This document shows positions 10,578 to 41,650 of a stretch of DNA of 58,247 nt, piece after piece. The position numbers and the translations under genes were made by a program. Source of the stretch: Myxococcota bacterium. Its GTDB lineage: Bacteria > Myxococcota > XYA12-FULL-58-9 > JABJBS01. The stretch is from NCBI GenBank assembly GCA_036339465.1, contig JAYZAY010000102.1, positions 1 to 58,247 on the forward strand. The letters run 5' to 3'. The notes under the pieces were generated by a model, which had not been told where the DNA came from, did no database searches, and saw only the letters and a program-made list of their open reading frames with translations. The stretch's first letter is position 1. Each line of letters begins with the position of its first letter.

Positions 10578-12650
10578 ATGGCTGAAAACATTTCCCCAGA
10601 AAAGATAAACGATTTTTTCTCCTCCGATGGCCCACTAAAATCAACGATTCCTCATTACGAAATCCGAGATGAGCAAAAAAAATTCGCGATAGGAATCGCA
10701 CAAGCAATTCAAAATGAAGAAAATCTCTTCGCCGAGGCAGGAACAGGAACCGGGAAAACACTTGGCTATCTAGTGCCCGCCATACTCTCTGGACTCAAAG
10801 TCATCATCTCAACCGGAACAAAAAACCTCCAAGAACAAATCCTCGCCAAAGACATTCCTATCACCGCCCAAGCACTCGGACGAACCATTTCCGTGGAACT
10901 CTTAAAGGGACGCTCAAATTACCTCTGTCATGCTCGAGCGGATCAATTCTTAGCCCAAGGCGTCATACCAGGGAGCCAATTAAAGAAACATCTAGAAATT
11001 GTTCGCGAATGGAGAGAAGTAACCCATACGGGAGATAGAGCTGAGCTCAAGGATCTACCTGAAAATTTTGACCCATGGCGACACATGTCAGCCACCTCAG
11101 AGCAATGCCCCGCACGCTCTTGCCCTGAATACGAGGCGTGCTGGGTTACCCGCACGCGTCGTCGTGCCCAACAAGCCGACATCGTCATTGTCAATCACCA
11201 CCTCTACTTTGCCGATGCTGCACTGCGCTCTCAGTTGGGAAATACGAGCCAAATCCAACTGATCCCGCCACACGACGTTGTTATTTTCGACGAAGCCCAT
11301 GATATTGATGAAGTTGTTTCGAACCACTTTGGTATAGAAGTATCGGAACGAAGACTCACTTCGTTGATCCGAGATATTGAAACCGAAGCACGAAACAGTA
11401 AACTCGATCTGGAAGAACTAAGAAACCTGCTTACCCGAATTGAAATAGCCCACCACAAATTGTTTAGCGCAATACCCTTCAATCTGGGGCAAAAAAAGAG
11501 AATCGCAAAACAGGATTTAACCTCAGCCATAACGGAAAATTTCTCTACCGTTAGATCTCTACTTATGCTGGTAGAAAATTCACTTTTTGAAGAGCGAACC
11601 GAGCTACTCGTCTCACTTGCCCGAAGATGTAGTGTCTATTACAGAGACCTTGCATTTCTACTCTTTCATCCCCAAGCCCCCTCAATCCTCTACGAAAACC
11701 CCGAAATAACCCCTGAAGAGGATATTGAGCATCTTGAAGATGATTTATTCACTTCGGAGAATACCTCCACAACCTCAGAGCTCGAAACCTTTGAAAAATT
11801 TGTCCACTACAGCGAAGGACATATGAAAAATCGACGGTTGGTGGCGCGACCTCTTGAGGTTTCTACGATTATTCCTTCACTCCTAGCCAAAAAAACAAGT
11901 ATTTTTGTTTCCGCTACTTTGGCCATGGGTGGACGCTTCAAGTATTTTCATTCTAAAATTGGGATACAGCCCAAGGAATCAATTATCGTGGAATCGCCCT
12001 TTCAATACGAAAAGCAGATGCGATACTTCATACCAAGCAAGTTAGCAGCCCCTAGAACTCCCCGGTATCAAGAAGAAATGGAAGACACCGTCTCTGATTT
12101 GGTGCGTATTTCCCAAGGTGGTGCATTTGTTCTCTGTACAAGCTACAGCATGCTCAACACCCTCGCTTCCTTTTTAGACCTACATTCAGAGTTCACAGTG
12201 CTTAAACAAGGCGACAAGCCGAAAAATAAATTGCTGCAAGATTTCATCTCCGACGGAAATGCTGTCCTCATTGCCACCATGAGTTTCTGGCAAGGGGTCG
12301 ATGTTCCTGGCGCTGCTCTCCGCCTGGTCATTATCGACAAACTTCCCTTTGCATCGCCCTATGACCCCTTAGTTCAAGCCCGACTAGATTATCTCGAAAA
12401 ATCAGGGTGCTCCCCTTTTATGGATTACCAAGTTCCTCAGGCTGCAATTCTCCTCAGACAAGGGGTCGGTCGCTTAATTAGAACACGCCTGGACAGGGGT
12501 GTTGTCGGCATTTTGGATTCTCGACTCACGCAACGTCATTATGGGCGACAAATCCAAGAATCGTTACCCAAAGCCCCAATATTGAACCATTTGGAAGATG
12601 TTCATTCCTTCTTCAGCAATCAGGACCATTTAAACAATGTCATTGACTAG
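10578..12650 (+). CDS. ATP-dependent DNA helicase, DinG/YoaA family
   Basis: EAGTGTGKT, KGRSNYLC, Fe-S Cys cluster (QCPARSCPEYEAC), DEAH, SATL, FWQGVDVPG and QGVGRLIR motifs. Confidence 0.95.
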   Translation: MAENISPEKINDFFSSDGPLKSTIPHYEIRDEQKKFAIGIAQAIQNEENLFAEAGTGTGKTLGYLVPAILSGLKVIISTGTKNLQEQILAKDIPITAQALGRTISVELLKGRSNYLCHARADQFLAQGVIPGSQLKKHLEIVREWREVTHTGDRAELKDLPENFDPWRHMSATSEQCPARSCPEYEACWVTRTRRRAQQADIVIVNHHLYFADAALRSQLGNTSQIQLIPPHDVVIFDEAHDIDEVVSNHFGIEVSERRLTSLIRDIETEARNSKLDLEELRNLLTRIEIAHHKLFSAIPFNLGQKKRIAKQDLTSAITENFSTVRSLLMLVENSLFEERTELLVSLARRCSVYYRDLAFLLFHPQAPSILYENPEITPEEDIEHLEDDLFTSENTSTTSELETFEKFVHYSEGHMKNRRLVARPLEVSTIIPSLLAKKTSIFVSATLAMGGRFKYFHSKIGIQPKESIIVESPFQYEKQMRYFIPSKLAAPRTPRYQEEMEDTVSDLVRISQGGAFVLCTSYSMLNTLASFLDLHSEFTVLKQGDKPKNKLLQDFISDGNAVLIATMSFWQGVDVPGAALRLVIIDKLPFASPYDPLVQARLDYLEKSGCSPFMDYQVPQAAILLRQGVGRLIRTRLDRGVVGILDSRLTQRHYGRQIQESLPKAPILNHLEDVHSFFSNQDHLNNVID

Positions 12651-14100
12651 CTTTCTATTCCTGCCCATTCTGCTCCTAAGTGGGCCCTCCGTTGAATCGC
12701 AATCAATAGAAACCACCTCTGAACCAAAAAAGGACACTCAAAATATCACCACGGCACATTCAATGACCGTAGCAGACAAATTGAGCGCTGCCATTAGAAT
12801 CAAAACCATCTCCAAAAAAGAGCAACCACTCGACCCACAGACATTTCTGAAATTCAAGCAGTTCCTCAAGCAAGCCTTCCCACTTACCCACCAAAAACTA
12901 AAGCTCGAAACCTTTGAAGACCATAGTCTGCGTCTCAAGTGGCAAGGTAAAACGTCAGACCCACCATTGGTGCTCATGGCACACCAAGATGTCGTCCCCG
13001 TAGCACAATCCACGGTCAAGGATTGGCAACACCCTCCATTTTCTGGCTTTAACGATGGGCAATATATCTGGGGCCGCGGCAGTCTCGACGCAAAAAATAT
13101 TCTCATCGCAGTGCTTCAAGCTATCGAAGAAGAAATTAAAGGCGGCTTTGAACCTAAGAAAACCATTTATATCGCACTGGGCCATGACGAAGAAGTTCTG
13201 GGATCAGGTGCAAAAGCGATGGCTGAGGACTTTCAAAAAAGAGCGAATCCTCCTGGGCTCGTCCTCGATGAAGGCTTGGCCATCACCCATAATATGATGC
13301 CCGGACTTGGTTCCCCCTTGGCTTTAATCGGGGTCTCGGAGAAAGGATATTTAACCATCAAACTCATAAGCCAAAGCCCCGGCGGGCACAGTTCAATGCC
13401 CCCAACACAAACCGCCATCTCCAAACTGGCAAGAGCCCTAACCAAAGTCCTCGATAACCCCTTTGAAGCACGTCTATCCTTGCCAATTCAAAATCTCCTG
13501 GACAACGTCTCAGAATACGTTGACTTTCCAATGAGTTTTATTTTCAAATATCACAGTCTAGCCAAACCCATTCTCATCAATAAGTTTGGCCAAAACCCCA
13601 GCACCAATGCCCTCATAAGGACCACCATCGCCCCCACGATTTTTCATGCGGGCGTCAGAGAAAATGTTCTGCCAACTTCGGCCAGCGCAAAATTGAACTT
13701 CAGAATTTTACCGGGAGACACGACTGACTCCATCGTAGCGAGCTTAAAAGAAACTCTCCAAGGCCATGACATTGAGATTCGGGCAGAACTCAAGACCTCA
13801 ACAAACCCCTCACCTATATCTTGTATCGACTGTCCTGAGTACAAGCTCATTGAGCGCTCATTGAAAAAGATTTTCCCGAATTCTATCGTCGCATCGTCCA
13901 TCGTCGTTGGAGCCACCGATGCCAGGCATTATGGCGCGTTGTCCCCAGCCGTTTATCGATTTAGCCCATTCAATTTTCGGCCCGAAGATTTAAGTAGAAT
14001 ACACGGCACCAATGAGCGGGTATCCATTAACGACCTCAACGAGGCGGTTAAGTTTTACCGGGAGATTGTTCGAAAATACGAAAAATTAGCTTCCCCCTAG
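12637..14100 (+). CDS. M20-family metallopeptidase (carboxypeptidase S/PM20D1-like), exported
   Basis: AHQDVVP, GRGSLDAK, HDEE, LDEG, GGHSS and IHGTNE motifs; hydrophobic N-terminus. Confidence 0.9.
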   Translation: MSLTSFLFLPILLLSGPSVESQSIETTSEPKKDTQNITTAHSMTVADKLSAAIRIKTISKKEQPLDPQTFLKFKQFLKQAFPLTHQKLKLETFEDHSLRLKWQGKTSDPPLVLMAHQDVVPVAQSTVKDWQHPPFSGFNDGQYIWGRGSLDAKNILIAVLQAIEEEIKGGFEPKKTIYIALGHDEEVLGSGAKAMAEDFQKRANPPGLVLDEGLAITHNMMPGLGSPLALIGVSEKGYLTIKLISQSPGGHSSMPPTQTAISKLARALTKVLDNPFEARLSLPIQNLLDNVSEYVDFPMSFIFKYHSLAKPILINKFGQNPSTNALIRTTIAPTIFHAGVRENVLPTSASAKLNFRILPGDTTDSIVASLKETLQGHDIEIRAELKTSTNPSPISCIDCPEYKLIERSLKKIFPNSIVASSIVVGATDARHYGALSPAVYRFSPFNFRPEDLSRIHGTNERVSINDLNEAVKFYREIVRKYEKLASP

Positions 14101-34431: not shown

Positions 34432-35097
34432 TTAGATGTGACCACCTGCTTGTTGCACAATCTCTCTCATTAATGCGTCGCCACCAAAATGATAGTTCGT
34501 AATGGAAATCCCCACCCCCACAGGTTTAGCTAGAGCGTTAAATTCGTCCACCACATAAGCGACAACCCCTTGTGTATGCACGACCCGCATCACCTCTAGG
34601 AGATGCATCGTAAAATAAATCGGCTTACCCACCTCAAACACTTTTTTGGTTGGAATGAAAATCGTATTATTCCGGATATTTTTCTCGTACTCCATCACAA
34701 AATGCCAACGAGTTTCAAAGCTAACGTGGAGGTCCTCCTTATGCTTGGGCTTATTTTCATGGCTATCGAGCTCTCTAACAACCTTTTCTAAAAGTGCGAC
34801 ATAGTCTGGATTTCTCTCCTGGATCTCAAGGCCCACGGCGTAACCAGGCTTTGACAAGTTGGCGCGCTTTGAACGTCGACACCAGCGCACTTTCCCCTTA
34901 AGGACAACTGGAAGTCTTCCAACCTTTATTTCAAGAACAATATCCTCGTTTGTGGACATGCTTTGCTTAGCTGAAAATGACAAACCTGTAGAAGAGATGT
35001 CGAGTGTAAAACCCAGTATCCGACCACTTTTCGTTTTGGCCGTGACCGGGTAGCGACGTTCGAAACGTTGGTTCTTCCGGTCCTGCAGCGTGGCCAA
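34432..35097 (-). CDS. Tandem PilZ-domain protein
   Basis: RFERR and DISSTG c-di-GMP motifs in domain 1; degenerate myxobacterial-type PilZ in domain 2; AAGGAAGG RBS before the TTG start. Confidence 0.85.
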   Translation of the reverse strand: MATLQDRKNQRFERRYPVTAKTKSGRILGFTLDISSTGLSFSAKQSMSTNEDIVLEIKVGRLPVVLKGKVRWCRRSKRANLSKPGYAVGLEIQERNPDYVALLEKVVRELDSHENKPKHKEDLHVSFETRWHFVMEYEKNIRNNTIFIPTKKVFEVGKPIYFTMHLLEVMRVVHTQGVVAYVVDEFNALAKPVGVGISITNYHFGGDALMREIVQQAGGHI

Positions 35098-35611: not shown

Positions 35612-36520
35612 CTAGCCCGCCTCCCGATGCTTTTCCATGGATTTCACAACCATGGTTCCACAACCTTCATTGGTAAATATTTCTTCCAATAAAGCACCTT
35701 CTCGATTTGAATCCACTAGGTGCACACGTTGAATGCCCCCTTCGAGTGCTGTTTTCACCGCTACGACTTTCGGTCGCATTCCCCCCTGAAGCATGCCTTC
35801 CCCATCGAGGCGATCCAATTGAGGCAAGTCCGTAAGAGGCATTAGACTACACTTGTCCTCAGGATTACGGAGAATACCAGGCACATTGGTTACCAAAACT
35901 AGTTTTTCTGCCCCCAAGGCCACAGCCAATTGAGCTGCTGCTGTATCGGCATTACAATTTAAGATATCCCCATTTTCACCCACGACTAACGGCGTTAAGA
36001 CGGGAATAAGCCCCGCTTCTAGAGCAACTTCGATGGCACTGGTATCCACTCGAACAATGTCCCCAACCTCTCCGAAATCCACGGTCTTCATCTCACCTGC
36101 ATCCGTCTTAATCTCAACCGGTGGTCGACGTTTTGCCTGGAGCATTAAACCATCCACGCCGCTCAATCCCAGAGCTTTTTCTCCCTCTTGAGCTAAAGCT
36201 TGTACCAATCGTAAATTAATATCACCCCGAAACACTTTTTTCGCCGCCTCTAAAATCGCCGGCGATGTCACGCGGCGCCCTGCGATCCTCTCAACGTTCA
36301 ATCCATGGGTTTTACAGTACTCATCGAGCTGAGGCCCCCCCCCATGAACCACCATGGTTTTGATGTTAAGACGATGTAAAGTTGCAATATCCCGTGCAAT
36401 CCATCTGAGTCGTTTTGTGTCTTGGGCCAACTCTCCCCCAAGTTTCACCACAAAGATCTTATCTTGATAGGCTCTTAGATACGGAATTGCATCGAGCAGT
36501 AAAATATCCCTCATCATCAT
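35612..36520 (-). CDS. argB: Acetylglutamate kinase
   Basis: AIPYL..YQDKIFVVKLGG, VHGGGPQ, GRRVT, NCNADT, GGMRPKV and EEIFTNEGCGT motifs; AAAGGAA RBS before ATG 36520. Confidence 0.95.
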   Translation of the reverse strand: MMMRDILLLDAIPYLRAYQDKIFVVKLGGELAQDTKRLRWIARDIATLHRLNIKTMVVHGGGPQLDEYCKTHGLNVERIAGRRVTSPAILEAAKKVFRGDINLRLVQALAQEGEKALGLSGVDGLMLQAKRRPPVEIKTDAGEMKTVDFGEVGDIVRVDTSAIEVALEAGLIPVLTPLVVGENGDILNCNADTAAAQLAVALGAEKLVLVTNVPGILRNPEDKCSLMPLTDLPQLDRLDGEGMLQGGMRPKVVAVKTALEGGIQRVHLVDSNREGALLEEIFTNEGCGTMVVKSMEKHREAG

Positions 36521-36534
36521 CGTTCCTTTTCTAC

Positions 36535-37503
36535 TTACGGCAACGCCGCAATTGTAGGCAGTCCTTTCATCATGGACCATCCGAAATGTAAATTCAGACA
36601 CTGAATCGCTTGACCACTGGCCCCTTTACCTAAGTTATCGAGTGCACCAATCACATATGCATGATCTCCTTGACTAAAAACAGCCACGTCAACCCACGAA
36701 GTTCCTCGAACCCATCGAATTTCGGGAGATTGCTCTCGGAGACGAACTCCGGAATTTTCTCCATAGAACTCTTTGTACAAATGAATCAGCTCTGCACGTG
36801 CCTTCAACTCCTTTAGAGGAATAATACAGGTTGCGAGAATTCCTCGGTCCACCGGTGCGGAAATTGGCACCATCCGGACCTCAGTGGTCTCCCCCCCTAT
36901 TTCTCGTAACATGCTTTCCACTTCTGAAACATGCTGGTGGGTTAGAATTTTATAGGCCTTAAGATTCGCAAATCGCTCCGGATGATGACCACTCTTGCTA
37001 GGATTGGTCCCCAAACCCGTAGAACCCGTCGCCGCGACCACCTGAATTGGACCAGACACCAACCTCTTTTTACAAAGAGGGGCACATGCGATTTGGATCG
37101 CCGTCGCGAAACAACCCGGCACCGCAATTCGGTTTGATTCGCTAAAATGTTCGCTTTGAAATTCGGCCAAACCATAAAGCCAACCAGCAACGTGTCGGTG
37201 ATCTCGAGAAAGGTCGATGATCAGTCTTGGATGGTGCTCTTCGAGCATTGCCACCATTTCAGCACCACGGCCATGGGGAACAGCCAAGAAAACCGCATCC
37301 AATTTGGCCAAACTCTGACCATCAAAATCAGCGGTTTCGAGGGAAGTAACGCCACTTAAGCAAGGATGAATCTCATCGATGCGTTCACCTGACCGTGACG
37401 AGGAAACAACCTGGGCCAATTCGAGCTCCGGATGATTAAGAACATGCCGAATAAGCTCACCTGCGGTGTAGCCTGTGGCTCCAACAATACCCACCCTTTT
37501 CAT
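36535..37503 (-). CDS. argC: N-acetyl-gamma-glutamyl-phosphate reductase
   Basis: VGATGYTAGEL, PGCFAT (catalytic Cys), HQH, RGIL and DNLGKGASGQAIQ motifs. Confidence 0.95.
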   Translation of the reverse strand: MKRVGIVGATGYTAGELIRHVLNHPELELAQVVSSSRSGERIDEIHPCLSGVTSLETADFDGQSLAKLDAVFLAVPHGRGAEMVAMLEEHHPRLIIDLSRDHRHVAGWLYGLAEFQSEHFSESNRIAVPGCFATAIQIACAPLCKKRLVSGPIQVVAATGSTGLGTNPSKSGHHPERFANLKAYKILTHQHVSEVESMLREIGGETTEVRMVPISAPVDRGILATCIIPLKELKARAELIHLYKEFYGENSGVRLREQSPEIRWVRGTSWVDVAVFSQGDHAYVIGALDNLGKGASGQAIQCLNLHFGWSMMKGLPTIAALP

Positions 37504-38549
37504 AGAAGCTCCTTCAGCGACGCTAAAAGAGTGTCTGTAAGTTTATCCGGTTCTGTACGTGCATTGGCCGCGGCGACGTTTGTAAGTTTTGTAATAGCAT
37601 CTGCCCCCGCCGCGTTGTCTGTGGCTGGCCCCGTGATAAGCTCTGGTTCCCAATCCCGTTCCCGAAACCACTGAACCGCGCCCCACGCGCCCACCGGATC
37701 ATTGGCTGCCAACATCAAGGCGCCGGCGCAGCGCTTAAATTGAGGCGCTTCAAGAATCTTATCCACTCCATAAGTTCCCATAATGCCATCTCCTAGCTCG
37801 ATTACCAGGAGATCATACTCTTCACGGTCCGCTAGATAATTAATACAACTCGCGGCAATATCCGTAACATTACCATGGGCTGTAGAAGGAAAGCCTACGT
37901 CGGCAAAAGTAACGGCTTCAACAGCTCCGTGGTCTCGCATTTCAAGAGAATCTCTTCTCAAAGCGACACCGGTAACCTTCGCAGCCCCAACCTTCAAACC
38001 TCGACGCGTTACCTCGCGGATAAATATACAAGCCGCACTGGTTTTACCCGCATGCATACATGTACCCGCAACCCATAAAATAGGCGGCAACTTTTCGTGA
38101 ACCTCATTCACCAAGGGAATACTGCCGGGAAAAATGTTGGCCGGCTCACCAACCCGACTACCCAAATTGGGAAAGCGCATAATCGCGCCTAATACTTCCA
38201 CACGACAGGGGGGACCAACATCTGGATTGACAGACGTGCATGACCCAATAACCCCTCCCGTGTTTAGGATATGTAAGGTATCGCCTTTCTGGATTTTCTT
38301 GGGAACAATCCCCGCATAACCTCGCAGGGCATTTCGTGCCCCCACCACACCAGCCATAAGATCGCCCGCTTGGACCGGCATCATACGCCCATAGCAATCT
38401 TCGATAGAATTGTAGGTGCTCTTGGTGTCGAGTACTCTAACCGCCAAAACTGTCCCTGCTACAGCCGGAATAGTCTCGCCCAAAACCACCTCATCATGGA
38501 GTCCTATATTTCGGGTAGACGATGCTATCTTGTTCAATCTTATTTTCAT
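37500..38549 (-). CDS. DUF1611/DgcN-like protein; candidate alternative N-acetylglutamate synthase
   Basis: GARNALRGYAG, GGVIG, P-loop-like VAGTCMHAGKT, AAKVTGV, D.GFPST and ELGDGI patterns resemble DUF1611-family proteins; ATGA overlap with argC. Confidence 0.7.
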   Translation of the reverse strand: MKIRLNKIASSTRNIGLHDEVVLGETIPAVAGTVLAVRVLDTKSTYNSIEDCYGRMMPVQAGDLMAGVVGARNALRGYAGIVPKKIQKGDTLHILNTGGVIGSCTSVNPDVGPPCRVEVLGAIMRFPNLGSRVGEPANIFPGSIPLVNEVHEKLPPILWVAGTCMHAGKTSAACIFIREVTRRGLKVGAAKVTGVALRRDSLEMRDHGAVEAVTFADVGFPSTAHGNVTDIAASCINYLADREEYDLLVIELGDGIMGTYGVDKILEAPQFKRCAGALMLAANDPVGAWGAVQWFRERDWEPELITGPATDNAAGADAITKLTNVAAANARTEPDKLTDTLLASLKELL

Positions 38550-38614
38550 CTAAGGCCCTCACTTTCCAGAATATCATCGGGCTATTCGTTCGATAAGTCG
38601 ACGCTTTCATTTAA

Positions 38615-39012
38615 TTATTTTCCCATCCACCGCGCCAAAGCCTCCGGAGCATTTCGGCCCGCAACAGCCGCAAAGGCATGGTCACTCCCTGCGGTGGTTC
38701 CCAAAATCCCTGACAACTTTGCGCCGTCGATGGCCGGGACCCACAACGGGTGCGCTACCGCCGCGAGGTTTCTCAGCACAATGGCCAGCCCCACCGAAGC
38801 GACCTGGGCATCCAATATCTCTACGCCCAACGGTAGCGACACCCGAGGAAATGCATAATAGTCCTTTGTTTTTACGATGGATCTGGCCTTCAACTCTCGG
38901 GATACTGTGGCCTGATTAACCCCAAACCCACACTTCGATAGCTTCTCTACAAGCTCCGATTGTGTTCGGCACTCCCCGACTCAATGAACTTATCCAACTG
39001 ATGTCGCCGCAT
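38615..39012 (-). pseudogene. argR: Arginine repressor ArgR with a frameshift (pseudogene or sequencing error)
   Basis: ATG 39012 gives MRRHQLDKFIESG. One extra G in the G4 run (38974-38977) continues ECRTQSELVEKLSKCGFGVNQATVSRELKARSIVK (ArgR winged HTH), then AIDG...ILGTTAGSD (ArgR C-domain). Confidence 0.85.
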
Positions 39013-39014
39013 AT

Positions 39015-39032
39015 TTTACGTTTTTATACATT
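39015..39032 (-). promoter_or_regulatory. ARG-box-like operator immediately upstream of argR
   Basis: Minus strand aaTGTATAAAAACGTAaa matches the core TGnATwwwwATnCA with two mismatches. Confidence 0.4.
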
Positions 39033-39160
39033 GGCAACAAGCCAGCCTCTTTACATCTTGTCATTTTTTGCCCCCGAAGTACGTCTCGGAGGAGAAAGTG
39101 AAAGGGTTCGCCCTGGCCCACGTTGCTCCTCAGACCGAGCTTCGGCATACTGCACAGCAT

Positions 39161-41650
39161 ATGATTTCAGAAAGCAGCCAGGTCATTAGGGCCTTTTTAG
39201 AAGCAGAGGACATCGCACAAACCAGCGATCACCCCTTGTCATCCGCCCATGTGCTTCTCGCACTTTTTACCTTCCCAAAACGCGCGCAATATTTACTCGA
39301 AGAGCGCGATGTCGACGAAGATCGGATATTAGATGCGATCCGTATTTTCGAAGAGGAGCCCAAACGAACCGTCGTGCGAATGCGAGAACGTGGCCGGGGA
39401 ATCGCCCAAGGAGCCGGAGCAAAAGAAGTTGATTGCCTTCACCTGCTCATCGCTATCACCCGGCTAAAAGAATCCTTTGCCTACACACTCTTGGAACGAG
39501 CGGGCCTCCCCATGACGGCTTTACGAAATCAAGCCGTCAGTTATGTGACGGGGGTAATGCCCAGGCGTTATCGAAGCCTTCCAAAGGTTCGAACCGATCC
39601 GCGGATGCTTTTTCAATCGCGAGCCCAAACTCAAAAAACAGAAGTCCAAAAAACAGGGAGTAGTCTCCGAGAGTCTATTCCCAAAGAGTTTATTGAGTCA
39701 GACACTCCACCGTCAAACGCCCCAGAAATCACCGGAGAGGCAATACCGGAAAAGAAGATCACCGTCCCCAAGTCCGCTGCTGCTTCCAAAGATTCCCCAT
39801 TTGATTTACCCAAACAAGCACCGACATTATCAAAATGTGGTGTCAATCTCACCGAACGTGCCCGGCAAGGCGAATTGGACATGGTCGTTGGTCGGGAAAA
39901 CGAACTTGAAGCCCTAGTAGACACCTTGGGTAAACGCCGCTCGAACAATCCTATTCTCGTGGGCCCACCTGGCGTTGGGAAAACGGCAATCGCCGAAGGG
40001 CTTGCAGTAAAAGTGGCTCGAGGCGACGAGGATGTTAACCACTTCTCAAACAAAGTCATCTTCGCTTTAGATACAGGAGCCTTGATCGCCGGGACCAGCC
40101 TTCGGGGAGCCTTTAGCGAACGAATGTCTGAAATTAAGAAGGAGGTCGCTCAAGCCAACGGACGAGTCATCGTCTTCATCGACGAACTCCATACACTGAT
40201 TGGTGCGGGTGGAACCGGCGAAAGTGCTCAAGATGCCGCAAATGAATTGAAGACAGCCTTAGCCAGGGGGGAATTTCCGTGCATCGGTGCTACCACCTTC
40301 GGGGAATACCGAAAGTATATCGAAAAAGACCCCGCCCTAGAAAGGCGGTTCACCCCCATTGAAGTCACTGAGCCCACCGTTGATGAGGCCATTCTCATTC
40401 TAGAAGGCGGCATCACCCCTTATGCTGAGCACCATAGAGTCGACTTCTCCTTGGACGCCGTTCACGCTGCAGTGGGCTTAACCCATCGCTTTGTGACCGA
40501 GCGAAAACTCCCGGACAAGGCCTTTTCCGCCCTGGATCTAGCCGGCTCCCGTGCAAGACGAAGAGGAAAAAACACCGTCGATAGAATTGACGTGGCCCGA
40601 GTGGTTCATGAATGGACTCAAATCCCCCTCGAAAGACTTGCCGAGGTTGATGGCGACCGTTTTGCCCGAGCCGAAGAAATTATCGGCCAACAATTGATAG
40701 GGCACCCCCAAGTCGTAAGATGTGTAGCAGAAGCAATTCGAAGAGGCTTCGCCGGCTTTGGGCATCAAAGGCCCATCGGAAGTTTTCTCTTTCTAGGCCC
40801 CACTGGTGTAGGAAAAACGGAATTGGTGAAGGTCTTAGCCGATTTCTTGTTTGGCAATAAAGAGGCTATCGTTCGCATCGACATGAGTGAAATGACGGAA
40901 GCTCATTCGATCTCGAGACTGATTGGTGCACAACCGGGCTACGTCGGTTACGAAGAAGGGGGTCAACTTACCGAAGCGCTTCGAAAAAGGCCATTTCAGA
41001 TCGTTTTATTCGATGAAATTGAGAAGTCGCATCCGGATATTCTAAACATCCTGCTTCAAATCCTAGACGAAGGCCATCTTACCGACAGCAAAGGGCGAAA
41101 AGTAAGTTTCACCAATACCCTCATTGTCTTAACTTCGAATCTCGGGTCTGAACATTTTAGGCCGAGCCAATTTCGTGCCATCGGCTTTGGTTCTTCCAAC
41201 CACGACCAAGCATCACAAAATCATGCGAAGGATGCGGCCCTTGAAATCGCGCGTGCGAAGCTGAGCCCTGAACTGTGGGGTCGACTTGACCAGCAATTGG
41301 TGTTTGCGCCCTTAACCGAAAAAGAAGTGGCCCAAATTGCCGAACTCCAACTCAAAAGTAGCGCCAAAGTCCTCTATGCTGAACGTGAAATCGCCCTACA
41401 ATGGAGCCCGCAAGTGATTGATTTTCTGCTCGCTCAAGGGGGCTTCAGCCCTGAACAAGGCGCCCGCGGCATGAGGCACGCAATCCAAAAACACGTCGAA
41501 GCGCCTCTGGCTTCGGCAATTTTGACCGGCAACATCAATTTCGGAGATATTGTGCATCTCACATGCCCCACCGAAAGCCTGGCGCTGGTTATTCAAGCTC
41601 AAAGACCTCAATTGCCAGTAGAGCCCACACAAAATACCGCGCCCCTCTAA
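39161..41650 (+). CDS. ATP-dependent Clp protease ATP-binding subunit (ClpA/ClpC family, no long middle coiled coil)
   Basis: Clp N repeats; GPPGVGKT/IDELH and GPTGVGKT/FDEIEK AAA+ modules; PGYVGYEEGG; IGF ClpP-binding loop. Start at ATG 39161. Confidence 0.93.
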   Translation: MISESSQVIRAFLEAEDIAQTSDHPLSSAHVLLALFTFPKRAQYLLEERDVDEDRILDAIRIFEEEPKRTVVRMRERGRGIAQGAGAKEVDCLHLLIAITRLKESFAYTLLERAGLPMTALRNQAVSYVTGVMPRRYRSLPKVRTDPRMLFQSRAQTQKTEVQKTGSSLRESIPKEFIESDTPPSNAPEITGEAIPEKKITVPKSAAASKDSPFDLPKQAPTLSKCGVNLTERARQGELDMVVGRENELEALVDTLGKRRSNNPILVGPPGVGKTAIAEGLAVKVARGDEDVNHFSNKVIFALDTGALIAGTSLRGAFSERMSEIKKEVAQANGRVIVFIDELHTLIGAGGTGESAQDAANELKTALARGEFPCIGATTFGEYRKYIEKDPALERRFTPIEVTEPTVDEAILILEGGITPYAEHHRVDFSLDAVHAAVGLTHRFVTERKLPDKAFSALDLAGSRARRRGKNTVDRIDVARVVHEWTQIPLERLAEVDGDRFARAEEIIGQQLIGHPQVVRCVAEAIRRGFAGFGHQRPIGSFLFLGPTGVGKTELVKVLADFLFGNKEAIVRIDMSEMTEAHSISRLIGAQPGYVGYEEGGQLTEALRKRPFQIVLFDEIEKSHPDILNILLQILDEGHLTDSKGRKVSFTNTLIVLTSNLGSEHFRPSQFRAIGFGSSNHDQASQNHAKDAALEIARAKLSPELWGRLDQQLVFAPLTEKEVAQIAELQLKSSAKVLYAEREIALQWSPQVIDFLLAQGGFSPEQGARGMRHAIQKHVEAPLASAILTGNINFGDIVHLTCPTESLALVIQAQRPQLPVEPTQNTAPL

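Follow-up and report, generated by a model that had tools for sequence, protein, structure and literature searches.

A gene for a protein of 349 amino acids (aa), called X in this study, lies next to argC in a marine, Myxococcota-like lineage and is the best candidate for the enzyme that carries out the missing first step of arginine synthesis, the formation of N-acyl-L-glutamate, in a pathway that has neither ArgJ nor ArgA. It was found within positions 1-58,247 of contig JAYZAY010000102.1 of a Myxococcota bacterium (assembly GCA_036339465.1), and this whole stretch of 58,247 nucleotides (nt) is referred to as the window. We put the probability that X is such an N-acyl-L-glutamate synthase at roughly 0.7, an estimate drawn wholly from gene context, phyletic pattern and predicted fold, because relatives of X are encoded in arg clusters at every one of 80 loci, because genomes with a strong X match never have ArgJ or ArgA, and because step 1 is otherwise unfilled; X was also found in ArgC-positive genomes only. 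An initial annotation made from the DNA letters had arrived at the same step and had added that X is a DUF1611/DgcN-type protein, that its product is N-acetyl-L-glutamate and that its operon is linked to ArgR; these three additions are revised below.

The initial annotation had also suspected that pathway gap-filling work might already have proposed such a role, and this proved right. GapMind 2026 (PLoS Genetics, 12 Nov 2026; bioRxiv 10.1101/2024.10.14.618325) predicts that the Steroidobacter protein ACG33_RS14135 (A0A127FCT3) is an N-succinylglutamate synthase. Its homologues are described there as hypothetical proteins encoded "virtually always" in arg operons with argB, C, D, F', E, G, H and R, and as present in 109 genera, never with an ArgA of the Pseudomonas type; a weak Foldseek match of ACG33_RS14135 to DgcN (PDB entry 7XRJ) and a neighbouring ArgF' without Glu92 are also given. 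Set side by side by description only, the ACG33_RS14135 family and the X family have in common the arg clusters, the absence of a classical ArgA, a DgcN-like fold and an ArgF' without Glu92, whereas the operon of the window lineage is argR-X-argC-argB and its sister genomes have a standard ornithine carbamoyltransferase (OTC), not ArgF'. These common traits make it very probable that the two families are one and the same; X would then extend to a marine Myxococcota-like lineage a family with a role already predicted in print. Literature searches on the N-acetylglutamate synthase (NAGS) of Myxococcus xanthus and on argA/argJ gaps gave only the GapMind papers as relevant, and a search on DUF1611 together with arginine found no paper. 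A protein search from locus L018, which is labelled Pseudomonadota, returned names from Myxococcota, Deltaproteobacteria, Pseudomonadota and Elusimicrobia only, with no Steroidobacter among them.

Gene clusters around X in other genomes

In a scan of 185,579 species, each represented by a single genome, at least 590 stretches were found to encode relatives of X. The neighbourhood counts given here refer to the best 80 of these at least 590 loci, whose genes were mapped by tblastn. Most of the 80 loci are labelled Gemmatimonadota, and Myxococcota, Planctomycetota, Elusimicrobiota, Acidobacteriota and Bdellovibrionota are also represented; some labels of metagenome-assembled genomes (MAGs) are doubtful. 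Other arg genes are present at 80/80 loci, so that the linkage of X homologues to arg genes, which had been left for a survey by the initial annotation, holds throughout this set. The common order is argG-X-argC-argD-argF'-argB-argE'-argH. The gene that precedes X is argG at 69 loci and argR at eight, and argC follows X directly on the same strand at 76 loci (75 under a 40% coverage filter), one of which, L034, has only part of argC, at the end of its contig. At the other four loci argC does not come next: L013 has ArgF' in its place, L023 and L082 have no argC within reach, and L080 stops just past X. An M20 argE-like gene was found in 51 of the 80 clusters, and argG, X, argC, argF', argB and such an argE-like gene occur jointly in 50. 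The arg names were confirmed by NCBIfam for 51 proteins of eight loci, including ArgF' with 345-413 bits on NF003384 (cut-off 288). The clusters thus hold a recognised enzyme for each step of the pathway except step 1. Short operons in which X is accompanied by argC and argB only occur in the window and at L009.

Longer proteins that contain X were also found, namely seven single-member proteins, of which two have ArgG domains, four have ArgC domains and one has no Pfam domain, and P0175 and P0203 show similar fused forms. Judging from their domain content, these are X joined to neighbouring genes, with no new domain partner.

Phyletic distribution of X, ArgJ and ArgA

A total of 201 genomes of the phylum that were at least 85% complete were searched for X and for the known enzymes of step 1 (one of them, G180, is flagged as unpublished); since the genomes are related by descent, counts are given and no statistical test. 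X was found in 57 of them, comprising 53 strong matches (385-603 bits) and four weak matches (109-126 bits) in family f11, and ArgJ was found in 83. The two overlap only in G065 and G102, whose weak X-like matches score 114-126 bits, and in 0 of the 53 genomes with a strong X. Family f16, which includes many closed genomes of 9-13 Mb, has X in 39/64 genomes and ArgJ in 24/64, and no genome has both. Classical ArgA (TIGR01890 above its cut-off) was detected in five of the 201 genomes, none of them among the 57 X-positive ones. ArgC is present in 154 genomes, among them all 57 with X, and X was not found in any of the 47 genomes without ArgC. Neither X nor ArgJ was found in 16 of the ArgC-positive genomes (G007, G011, G020, G025, G027, G033, G066, G071, G081, G106, G110, G114, G116, G120, G128 and G130); nine of these belong to family f22, and the five genomes with classical ArgA lie outside the 16.

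The weak X-like proteins of family f11 (G060, G065, G099 and G102), which score 109-126 bits with the X profile, branch distantly from the others and probably do not have the same role as X.

The assembly from which the window comes (G000) has 4.17 Mb in 102 contigs and is 92.8% complete. The initial annotation had left the presence of argA, argJ and lysW elsewhere in the genome to be checked, and none was found: ArgJ gave 0 matches to PF01960, ArgA gave none above the cut-off of TIGR01890, and in the same assembly there was no LysW and no LysX above cut-off. The LysW/LysX route was rejected on these grounds. There are five GNAT matches in the assembly, none of which is near arg genes and none of which is named NAGS by NCBIfam. 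ArgD (481 bits), ArgG and ArgH are encoded on other contigs.

Sequence conservation of X

X has no family match in Pfam or NCBIfam, and the sole Pfam match at E-values up to 10 is MobB (E 0.027). Searched against the PDB by sequence, X gave chance matches only, and by profile it gave only the P-loop of BioD (E 0.12). More than 5675 homologues were found in a set of 5.8 billion proteins, and when 1.84 billion cluster representatives were searched with a profile, 1774 matched at E <=0.001, 317 of them at E <=1e-30. The named homologues are all "hypothetical protein" from MAGs of Myxococcota or Deltaproteobacteria. No GNAT family of Pfam and no PF01960 (ArgJ) matches X, in agreement with the initial annotation, which had seen no GNAT or ArgJ motif, and the strings AGTCMHAGKT, AAKVTG and ELGDG that it had reported are present in the X translation.

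Conservation was evaluated in 70 diverse full-length members of the family, with 26-55% identity to X. At least 90% of them retain S10, G32, E50, G70, R72, P83, G99, G102, G121 and P156, followed by G168, K169, T170, K191, G194, D200, G208 and A209 and by F215, D217, G219, E251, G253, D284 and G307; S10, E50 and R72 are among those of the N-terminal domain. In the P-loop, G168 and K169 were found in 70/70 members and T170 in 69/70, whereas conservation of Cys164 and His166 in the same motif falls short of 90%. The X P-loop aligns with GTDTEVGKT of BioD, and K169, T170 and K191 of X fall on K15, T16 and K37 of Escherichia coli BioD (E 0.12-0.16, which is weak alone), residues with roles in phosphate and Mg binding and in catalysis. 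X appears to have kept the full set of phosphate- and Mg-binding residues that a BioD-like site requires.

Predicted fold of X

An AlphaFold model of X was built from 33 sequences (predicted local distance difference test, pLDDT, 91; predicted template modelling score, pTM, 0.89). Residues ~150-349 form a SIMIBI-class P-loop domain in this model. The best matches of the model by VIA-align were TM0796/2g0t (DUF1611, Z 16.6), BioD 3of5 (Z 16.3) and 1a82 (Z 16.0), 2obn (DUF1611, Z 15.9), CTP synthase (Z 15.6) and DgcN 7xrj (Z 15.2, root-mean-square deviation 3.0 over 183 aligned residues); these rows spread over ~1.5 Z, so that DgcN stands level with BioD and with other DUF1611 proteins. They are followed by the metallochaperone NTPases HypB (Z 14.6) and UreG (Z 14.2) and by a MeaB-like protein (Z 11.6). 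With Foldseek the whole X model matched SRP54, BioD and HypB, and DgcN was not among the matches listed. The C-terminal half of X is therefore predicted to have a BioD-like SIMIBI P-loop fold with the Walker-A Lys and Thr.

BioD (PDB entries 1A82, 1DTS and 3OF5), the dethiobiotin synthetase, acts in biotin synthesis, where it closes a carbamate in an ATP-dependent reaction. It resembles X in fold (Z 16.0-16.3) and in the aligned P-loop and subsequent Lys, but BioD is a single-domain protein, whereas X has two domains and does not match AAA_26 of Pfam; to our knowledge, BioD never occurs in arg operons.

Residues 1-150, folded separately, gave an all-beta domain (pLDDT 90.5). Among 48,161 PDB chains the best VIA match of this domain had Z 3.1 and none reached Z 5, and the best Foldseek match had an E-value of 0.37. 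The modelled N-terminal domain is thus without a structural match, which by itself is no proof of a new fold.

Relationship of X to DUF1611 and DgcN

According to GapMind 2026, which cites Yu et al. 2023, DgcN (7XRJ) of the DUF1611 family is a D-glutamate N-acetyltransferase. The comparison of X with DUF1611 and DgcN that the initial annotation had called for showed a resemblance of the P-loop domain to the structures 2g0t, 2obn and 7xrj, whose matches lie mostly in the C-terminal domain of X. X and DgcN are alike in this fold, in the G-T-x4-G-K-T and E-G-x-G motifs at the same places and in the proposed substrate, glutamate. They differ in that X has no PF07755 match, has an all-beta N-terminal domain, and has Lys191 where DUF1611 proteins have an invariant Thr. 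The N-terminal domain of DUF1611 proteins is alpha/beta.

PF07755 (gathering score 25 bits) gave no match to X even at E-values up to 10, and no match anywhere in its own genome. Among 26 distant members of the X family, 12 had sub-threshold scores of 13-21 bits on this profile, confined to the P-loop stretch. When the X alignment was compared by hhalign with seven true DUF1611 proteins from within the phylum, the probability was 7.2% (E 0.0049, 170 columns), with the P-loop and E-G-x-G in register and Lys191 of X opposite the invariant Thr. True DUF1611 proteins are encoded beside X in nine genomes (G062, G078, G087, G115, G121, G129, G135, G137 and G138), and one DUF1611 protein of the X-positive genomes scores 400 bits to DgcN 7xrj. 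Since single genomes encode both X and a true DUF1611/DgcN protein, X and DgcN are separate families. In the ESM Atlas, X adjoins clusters that were automatically named "DUF1611 domain-containing protein", and PF07755 is found in only 16-18% of their members. The DUF1611-type label of the initial annotation could not be kept, given the absence of a PF07755 match, the low hhalign probability, the N-terminal domain that matches nothing in the PDB and the coexisting DgcN orthologues; X appears to be a remote relative of DUF1611 at the level of the fold and, by profile, is not a member of the family.

Eight of these genomes, at loci L090-L097 (G062, G087, G115, G121, G129, G135, G137 and G138), are large and have a DgcN orthologue in addition to X (the one tested being that with 400 bits), and they may also have a D-glutamate catabolic route.

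Acyl group of the product

The column of residue 92 in ArgF' was set by the PDB entries of the N-acetylornithine carbamoyltransferase of Xanthomonas and its E92 mutants. In the 60 alignable ArgF' proteins that adjoin X, this position is V in 43, A in 11, P in five, I in one and E in none; two further rows, a partial sequence of L033 and the OTC of L070, have a gap there. As reported in the S1B Text of GapMind 2026, Shi et al. 2007 found that replacement of E92 by A, P, S or V shifts the enzyme to N-succinylornithine, and the same text describes the same position-92 pattern in 70 ArgF' proteins. Because the neighbouring ArgF' proteins have no Glu at this position, most of the X family probably uses a succinyl group, and with 0/60 ArgF' carrying Glu92 the N-acetyl product named in the initial annotation has become doubtful.

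In a quick tree, the X of the window groups with L003 and L004 (Shimodaira-Hasegawa-like approximate likelihood ratio test, SH-aLRT, 90) within a well-supported clade of 13 rows that have mostly Myxococcota-type MAG labels. Within this clade, X and a standard OTC occur in the same genome in G058, G068 and the genomes of L003, L009 and L016; outside it they do so in the L070 genome. In G083, which belongs to the window's own family, ArgF' adjoins X. The operon of the window lineage is reduced to argR-X-argC-argB, and since its sister genomes use a standard OTC, the acyl group may be either succinyl or acetyl in this lineage. The succinyl assignment may therefore not be universal.

Proposed reaction and alternative explanations

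We infer that the C-terminal P-loop domain of X would hold the phosphate-bearing part of the acyl donor, which would most simply be the 3'-phospho-ADP moiety of succinyl- or acetyl-coenzyme A (CoA), as in DgcN, or alternatively ATP, and that the N-terminal beta domain and the inter-domain cleft would hold L-glutamate. The N-acyl-L-glutamate formed would then pass to the kinase ArgB and the reductase ArgC, the genes for which follow directly after X. The same job is proposed for X as for ArgJ, ArgA and the GNAT-type synthases such as Cabys_1732 and BT3761 (GapMind 2020, PMC7311316), namely the provision of N-acyl-L-glutamate for ArgB; these proteins have unrelated folds and belong to unrelated families, however, and X has no PF01960, GNAT or amino-acid-kinase domain. 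The position of X is also familiar: X adjoins argC, and in many Gram-positive operons argJ lies between argC and argB.

Several findings weigh against a synthase role for X. No significant sequence link of X to any acyltransferase was found (7.2% by hhalign to DUF1611), and ATPases and GTPases (BioD, CTP synthase, HypB, UreG and SRP54) match the X fold as highly as DgcN does. Table 1 of GapMind 2026 marks experimental confirmation of the prediction as "no". The anti-correlation of X and ArgJ belongs to a whole pathway variant with argF' and argE', not to X alone, and the 16 ArgC-positive genomes without X or ArgJ suggest that another unrecognised N-acylglutamate synthase may exist in them. In the own genome, four small GNATs without an assigned role remain. 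The same assembly has no OTC or ArgF', its sole carbamoyltransferase being PyrB (387 bits on NF002032, contig C24, 40315-41241), and its best match to the N-acylornithine deacylase profile TIGR01892 is a YgeY-family M20 protein with 98.8 bits (cut-off 297.7), so that step 1 is not the sole gap. The absence of OTC is probably an assembly gap, since a standard OTC is encoded on short contigs of the related genomes G058 (395 bits) and G068 (380 bits).

An alternative that keeps X at step 1 is that it works as a BioD-like ATP-dependent ligase and not as an acyl-CoA transferase. A free carboxylic acid (succinate, acetate or other) would be converted into an acyl phosphate at K169, T170, K191, D200 and E251, and the acyl phosphate would be joined to L-glutamate on an N-terminal beta domain whose fold would be one unseen in solved structures; in the window lineage, with its standard OTC, the product would be N-acetylglutamate or another acyl form and not N-succinylglutamate. 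The complete BioD-type phosphate site kept in X would allow such a mechanism; taken as a whole, with the novel N-terminal fold and the non-succinyl product included, we regard it as rather unlikely.

It is improbable that X performs another acyl-handling step, either as an N-acylornithine or N-acylcitrulline deacylase or as a transacylase, which would transfer the acyl group back to glutamate as ArgJ does in its second activity. The mutual exclusion of X and the bifunctional ArgJ would fit such a role, as would the lack of a clear ArgE in the own genome (see the scores above) and, according to S1B of GapMind 2026, in Steroidobacter. However, the M20 argE-like gene of 51/80 X clusters fills the deacylase step and leaves step 1 empty, a transacylase by itself would be unable to start the pathway, and the fold of X gives no hint of a hydrolase.

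There is likewise little probability that X is a nucleotide-dependent accessory protein, a SIMIBI NTPase that metallates the M20 deacylase or assembles or regulates ArgB and ArgC, with one of the small GNATs as the synthase. The structural matches to HypB, UreG and the MeaB-like protein point in this direction, and so do the invariant P-loop Lys, Thr and acidic residues and the four uncharacterised GNATs of the own genome. Against these stand the operon of the window, which keeps X though it has no M20 gene, the short operons in which X has only argC and argB beside it, the lack of linkage between the GNATs and arg genes, and the conservation of Cys164 and His166 in the P-loop motif, which lies below 90% of the 70 members. 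A function of X outside arginine synthesis, as a passenger of the operon, is very improbable in view of the arg clusters at 80/80 loci with at least six phylum labels, the translational coupling of X to argC in the window and the restriction of X to ArgC-positive genomes. An N-acyl-L-glutamate synthase thus remains the preferred reading of X.

Organization of the arginine locus in the window

The features of the locus are listed in Table 1. The argR-like gene, X, argC and argB are co-oriented on the minus strand within 35612-39032, as the initial annotation had stated, and argC and argB were confirmed by TIGR01850 and TIGR00761. Neither argA nor argJ is present at this locus, which also agrees with that annotation. 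X ends in KELL, and its stop codon and the argC start share the ATGA that had been read there, from which argC is taken to be translationally coupled to X. The start of argB is probably the ATG at 36520, which lies 11 nt past the argC stop and is preceded by the ribosome-binding-site-like sequence aaagga. The argB product consists of the amino-acid-kinase domain only, with no GNAT part.

Table 1. Positions and strands of X, its domains and the neighbouring arginine features in the window
Feature	Position	Strand	Basis
X, candidate N-acyl-L-glutamate synthase (non-GNAT, non-ArgJ)	37500..38549	-	intact open reading frame (ORF), 349 aa
X N-terminal domain, residues 1-150, predicted all-beta	38100..38549	-	folded separately, pLDDT 90.5
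X C-terminal domain, residues 151-349, predicted BioD/DUF1611-like SIMIBI P-loop fold	37503..38099	-	VIA and Foldseek
P-loop GTCMHAGKT, X residues 162-170	38040..38066	-	read from sequence
argC	36535..37503	-	TIGR01850, 285.6 bits (cut-off 233.6); overlaps X stop
argB, N-acylglutamate kinase	35612..36520 (ORF open to GTG 36601)	-	TIGR00761, 200.1 bits (cut-off 151.3)
argR-like main frame, helix-turn-helix TQSELVEKL..VNQATVSRELK and C-terminal domain	38615..38986	-	translation
argR N-terminal fragment in another frame, MRRHQLDKFIESGSAEHNRSL and stop	38947..39012	-	resembles N-termini of relatives
AT-rich ARG-box-like site AATGTATAAAAACGTAAAATATG, degenerate, over the argR ATG	39010..39032	-	letters; position in relatives

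The argR-like gene is homologous to the ArgR of the related genome G058, which is intact with ~150 aa, and to that of loci L003-L016. The initial annotation had listed it as argR; argR-like sequence is indeed there, but it is not a single open gene. The ATG at 39012 starts a frame of 21 codons that is akin to the ArgR N-termini of relatives, for example MTWKHQLEDLIQTGNYR in L008. The remainder of the repressor, with RTQSELVEKLSKCGFGVNQATVSRELK (containing RTQSELVEKL) and the C-terminal domain, is in the -1 frame, whose first possible start codon is only the TTG at 38893, and the C-terminal part scores 17.9 bits on Arg_repressor_C (cut-off 25). Between IESG and RTQSEL, at or just past a GGGG stretch, the frame is broken by one base. 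Contigs of runs X1, X3 and X4, each from a different study, read identically across the break and show no insertion or deletion; since they agree, a random assembly error is unlikely, one of the runs being possibly the window's own sample. On the letters, the break could be that of a pseudogene or a -1 slip site.

The ARG-box-like site proposed upstream of argR was likewise not confirmed in the form first described. Palindromic boxes of the type TGCATAATATG, often over the start codon, occur upstream of argR in L003, L004, L007, L010, L013, L016, L019, L022, L052 and G058 (L104), and this type looks like the ARG box of the group, unlike the E. coli consensus. The AT-rich site of the window at 39010-39032 is, by its letters, a degenerate copy at the same position; counted by eye, it departs from the E. 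coli consensus at five letters. No match to that consensus with <=3 mismatches was found near argR, and the whole window has seven such matches as compared with 11.4 expected from shuffled sequence. With a broken reading frame in argR and a degenerate box, the link of this operon to ArgR is weak. A promoter and terminator scan gave nothing that exceeded shuffled controls.

Most of the long ORFs of the studied region are on the minus strand, and the GC skew is negative in all 2-kb bins of the window (1-58247), with a cumulative value of -4.4. A ClpB/ClpA-like AAA+ protein is encoded divergently from argR (39068-41650, plus strand), and a TIGR02266-domain protein ("paralog_domain" model gmx_TIGR02266) is encoded immediately downstream of argB (34432-35097, minus strand). 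Farther away, at 12637-14100 on the plus strand, the window encodes an M20-family peptidase with 398 bits on NF006111, which is under the cut-off of that model.

Implications

The prediction being already in print, the window supports and refines it. What is added here is that the X family fails the DUF1611 profile, that it keeps the BioD-type phosphate and Mg residues, that its N-terminal domain has no structural match and that a sub-lineage combines X with a standard OTC. The presence of X orthologues in closed f16 genomes brings genetic work in a cultured myxobacterium within reach; one related locus is labelled Archangium gephyra. If X makes N-acylglutamate, the "missing argA" gap in arginine synthesis would be closed in at least 590 species genomes, a gap that spans many myxobacteria, Gemmatimonadota, Planctomycetota, Elusimicrobiota, Acidobacteriota and others, and X would be a further unrelated solution for step 1 of the pathway, besides ArgA and the other GNAT enzymes and ArgJ.

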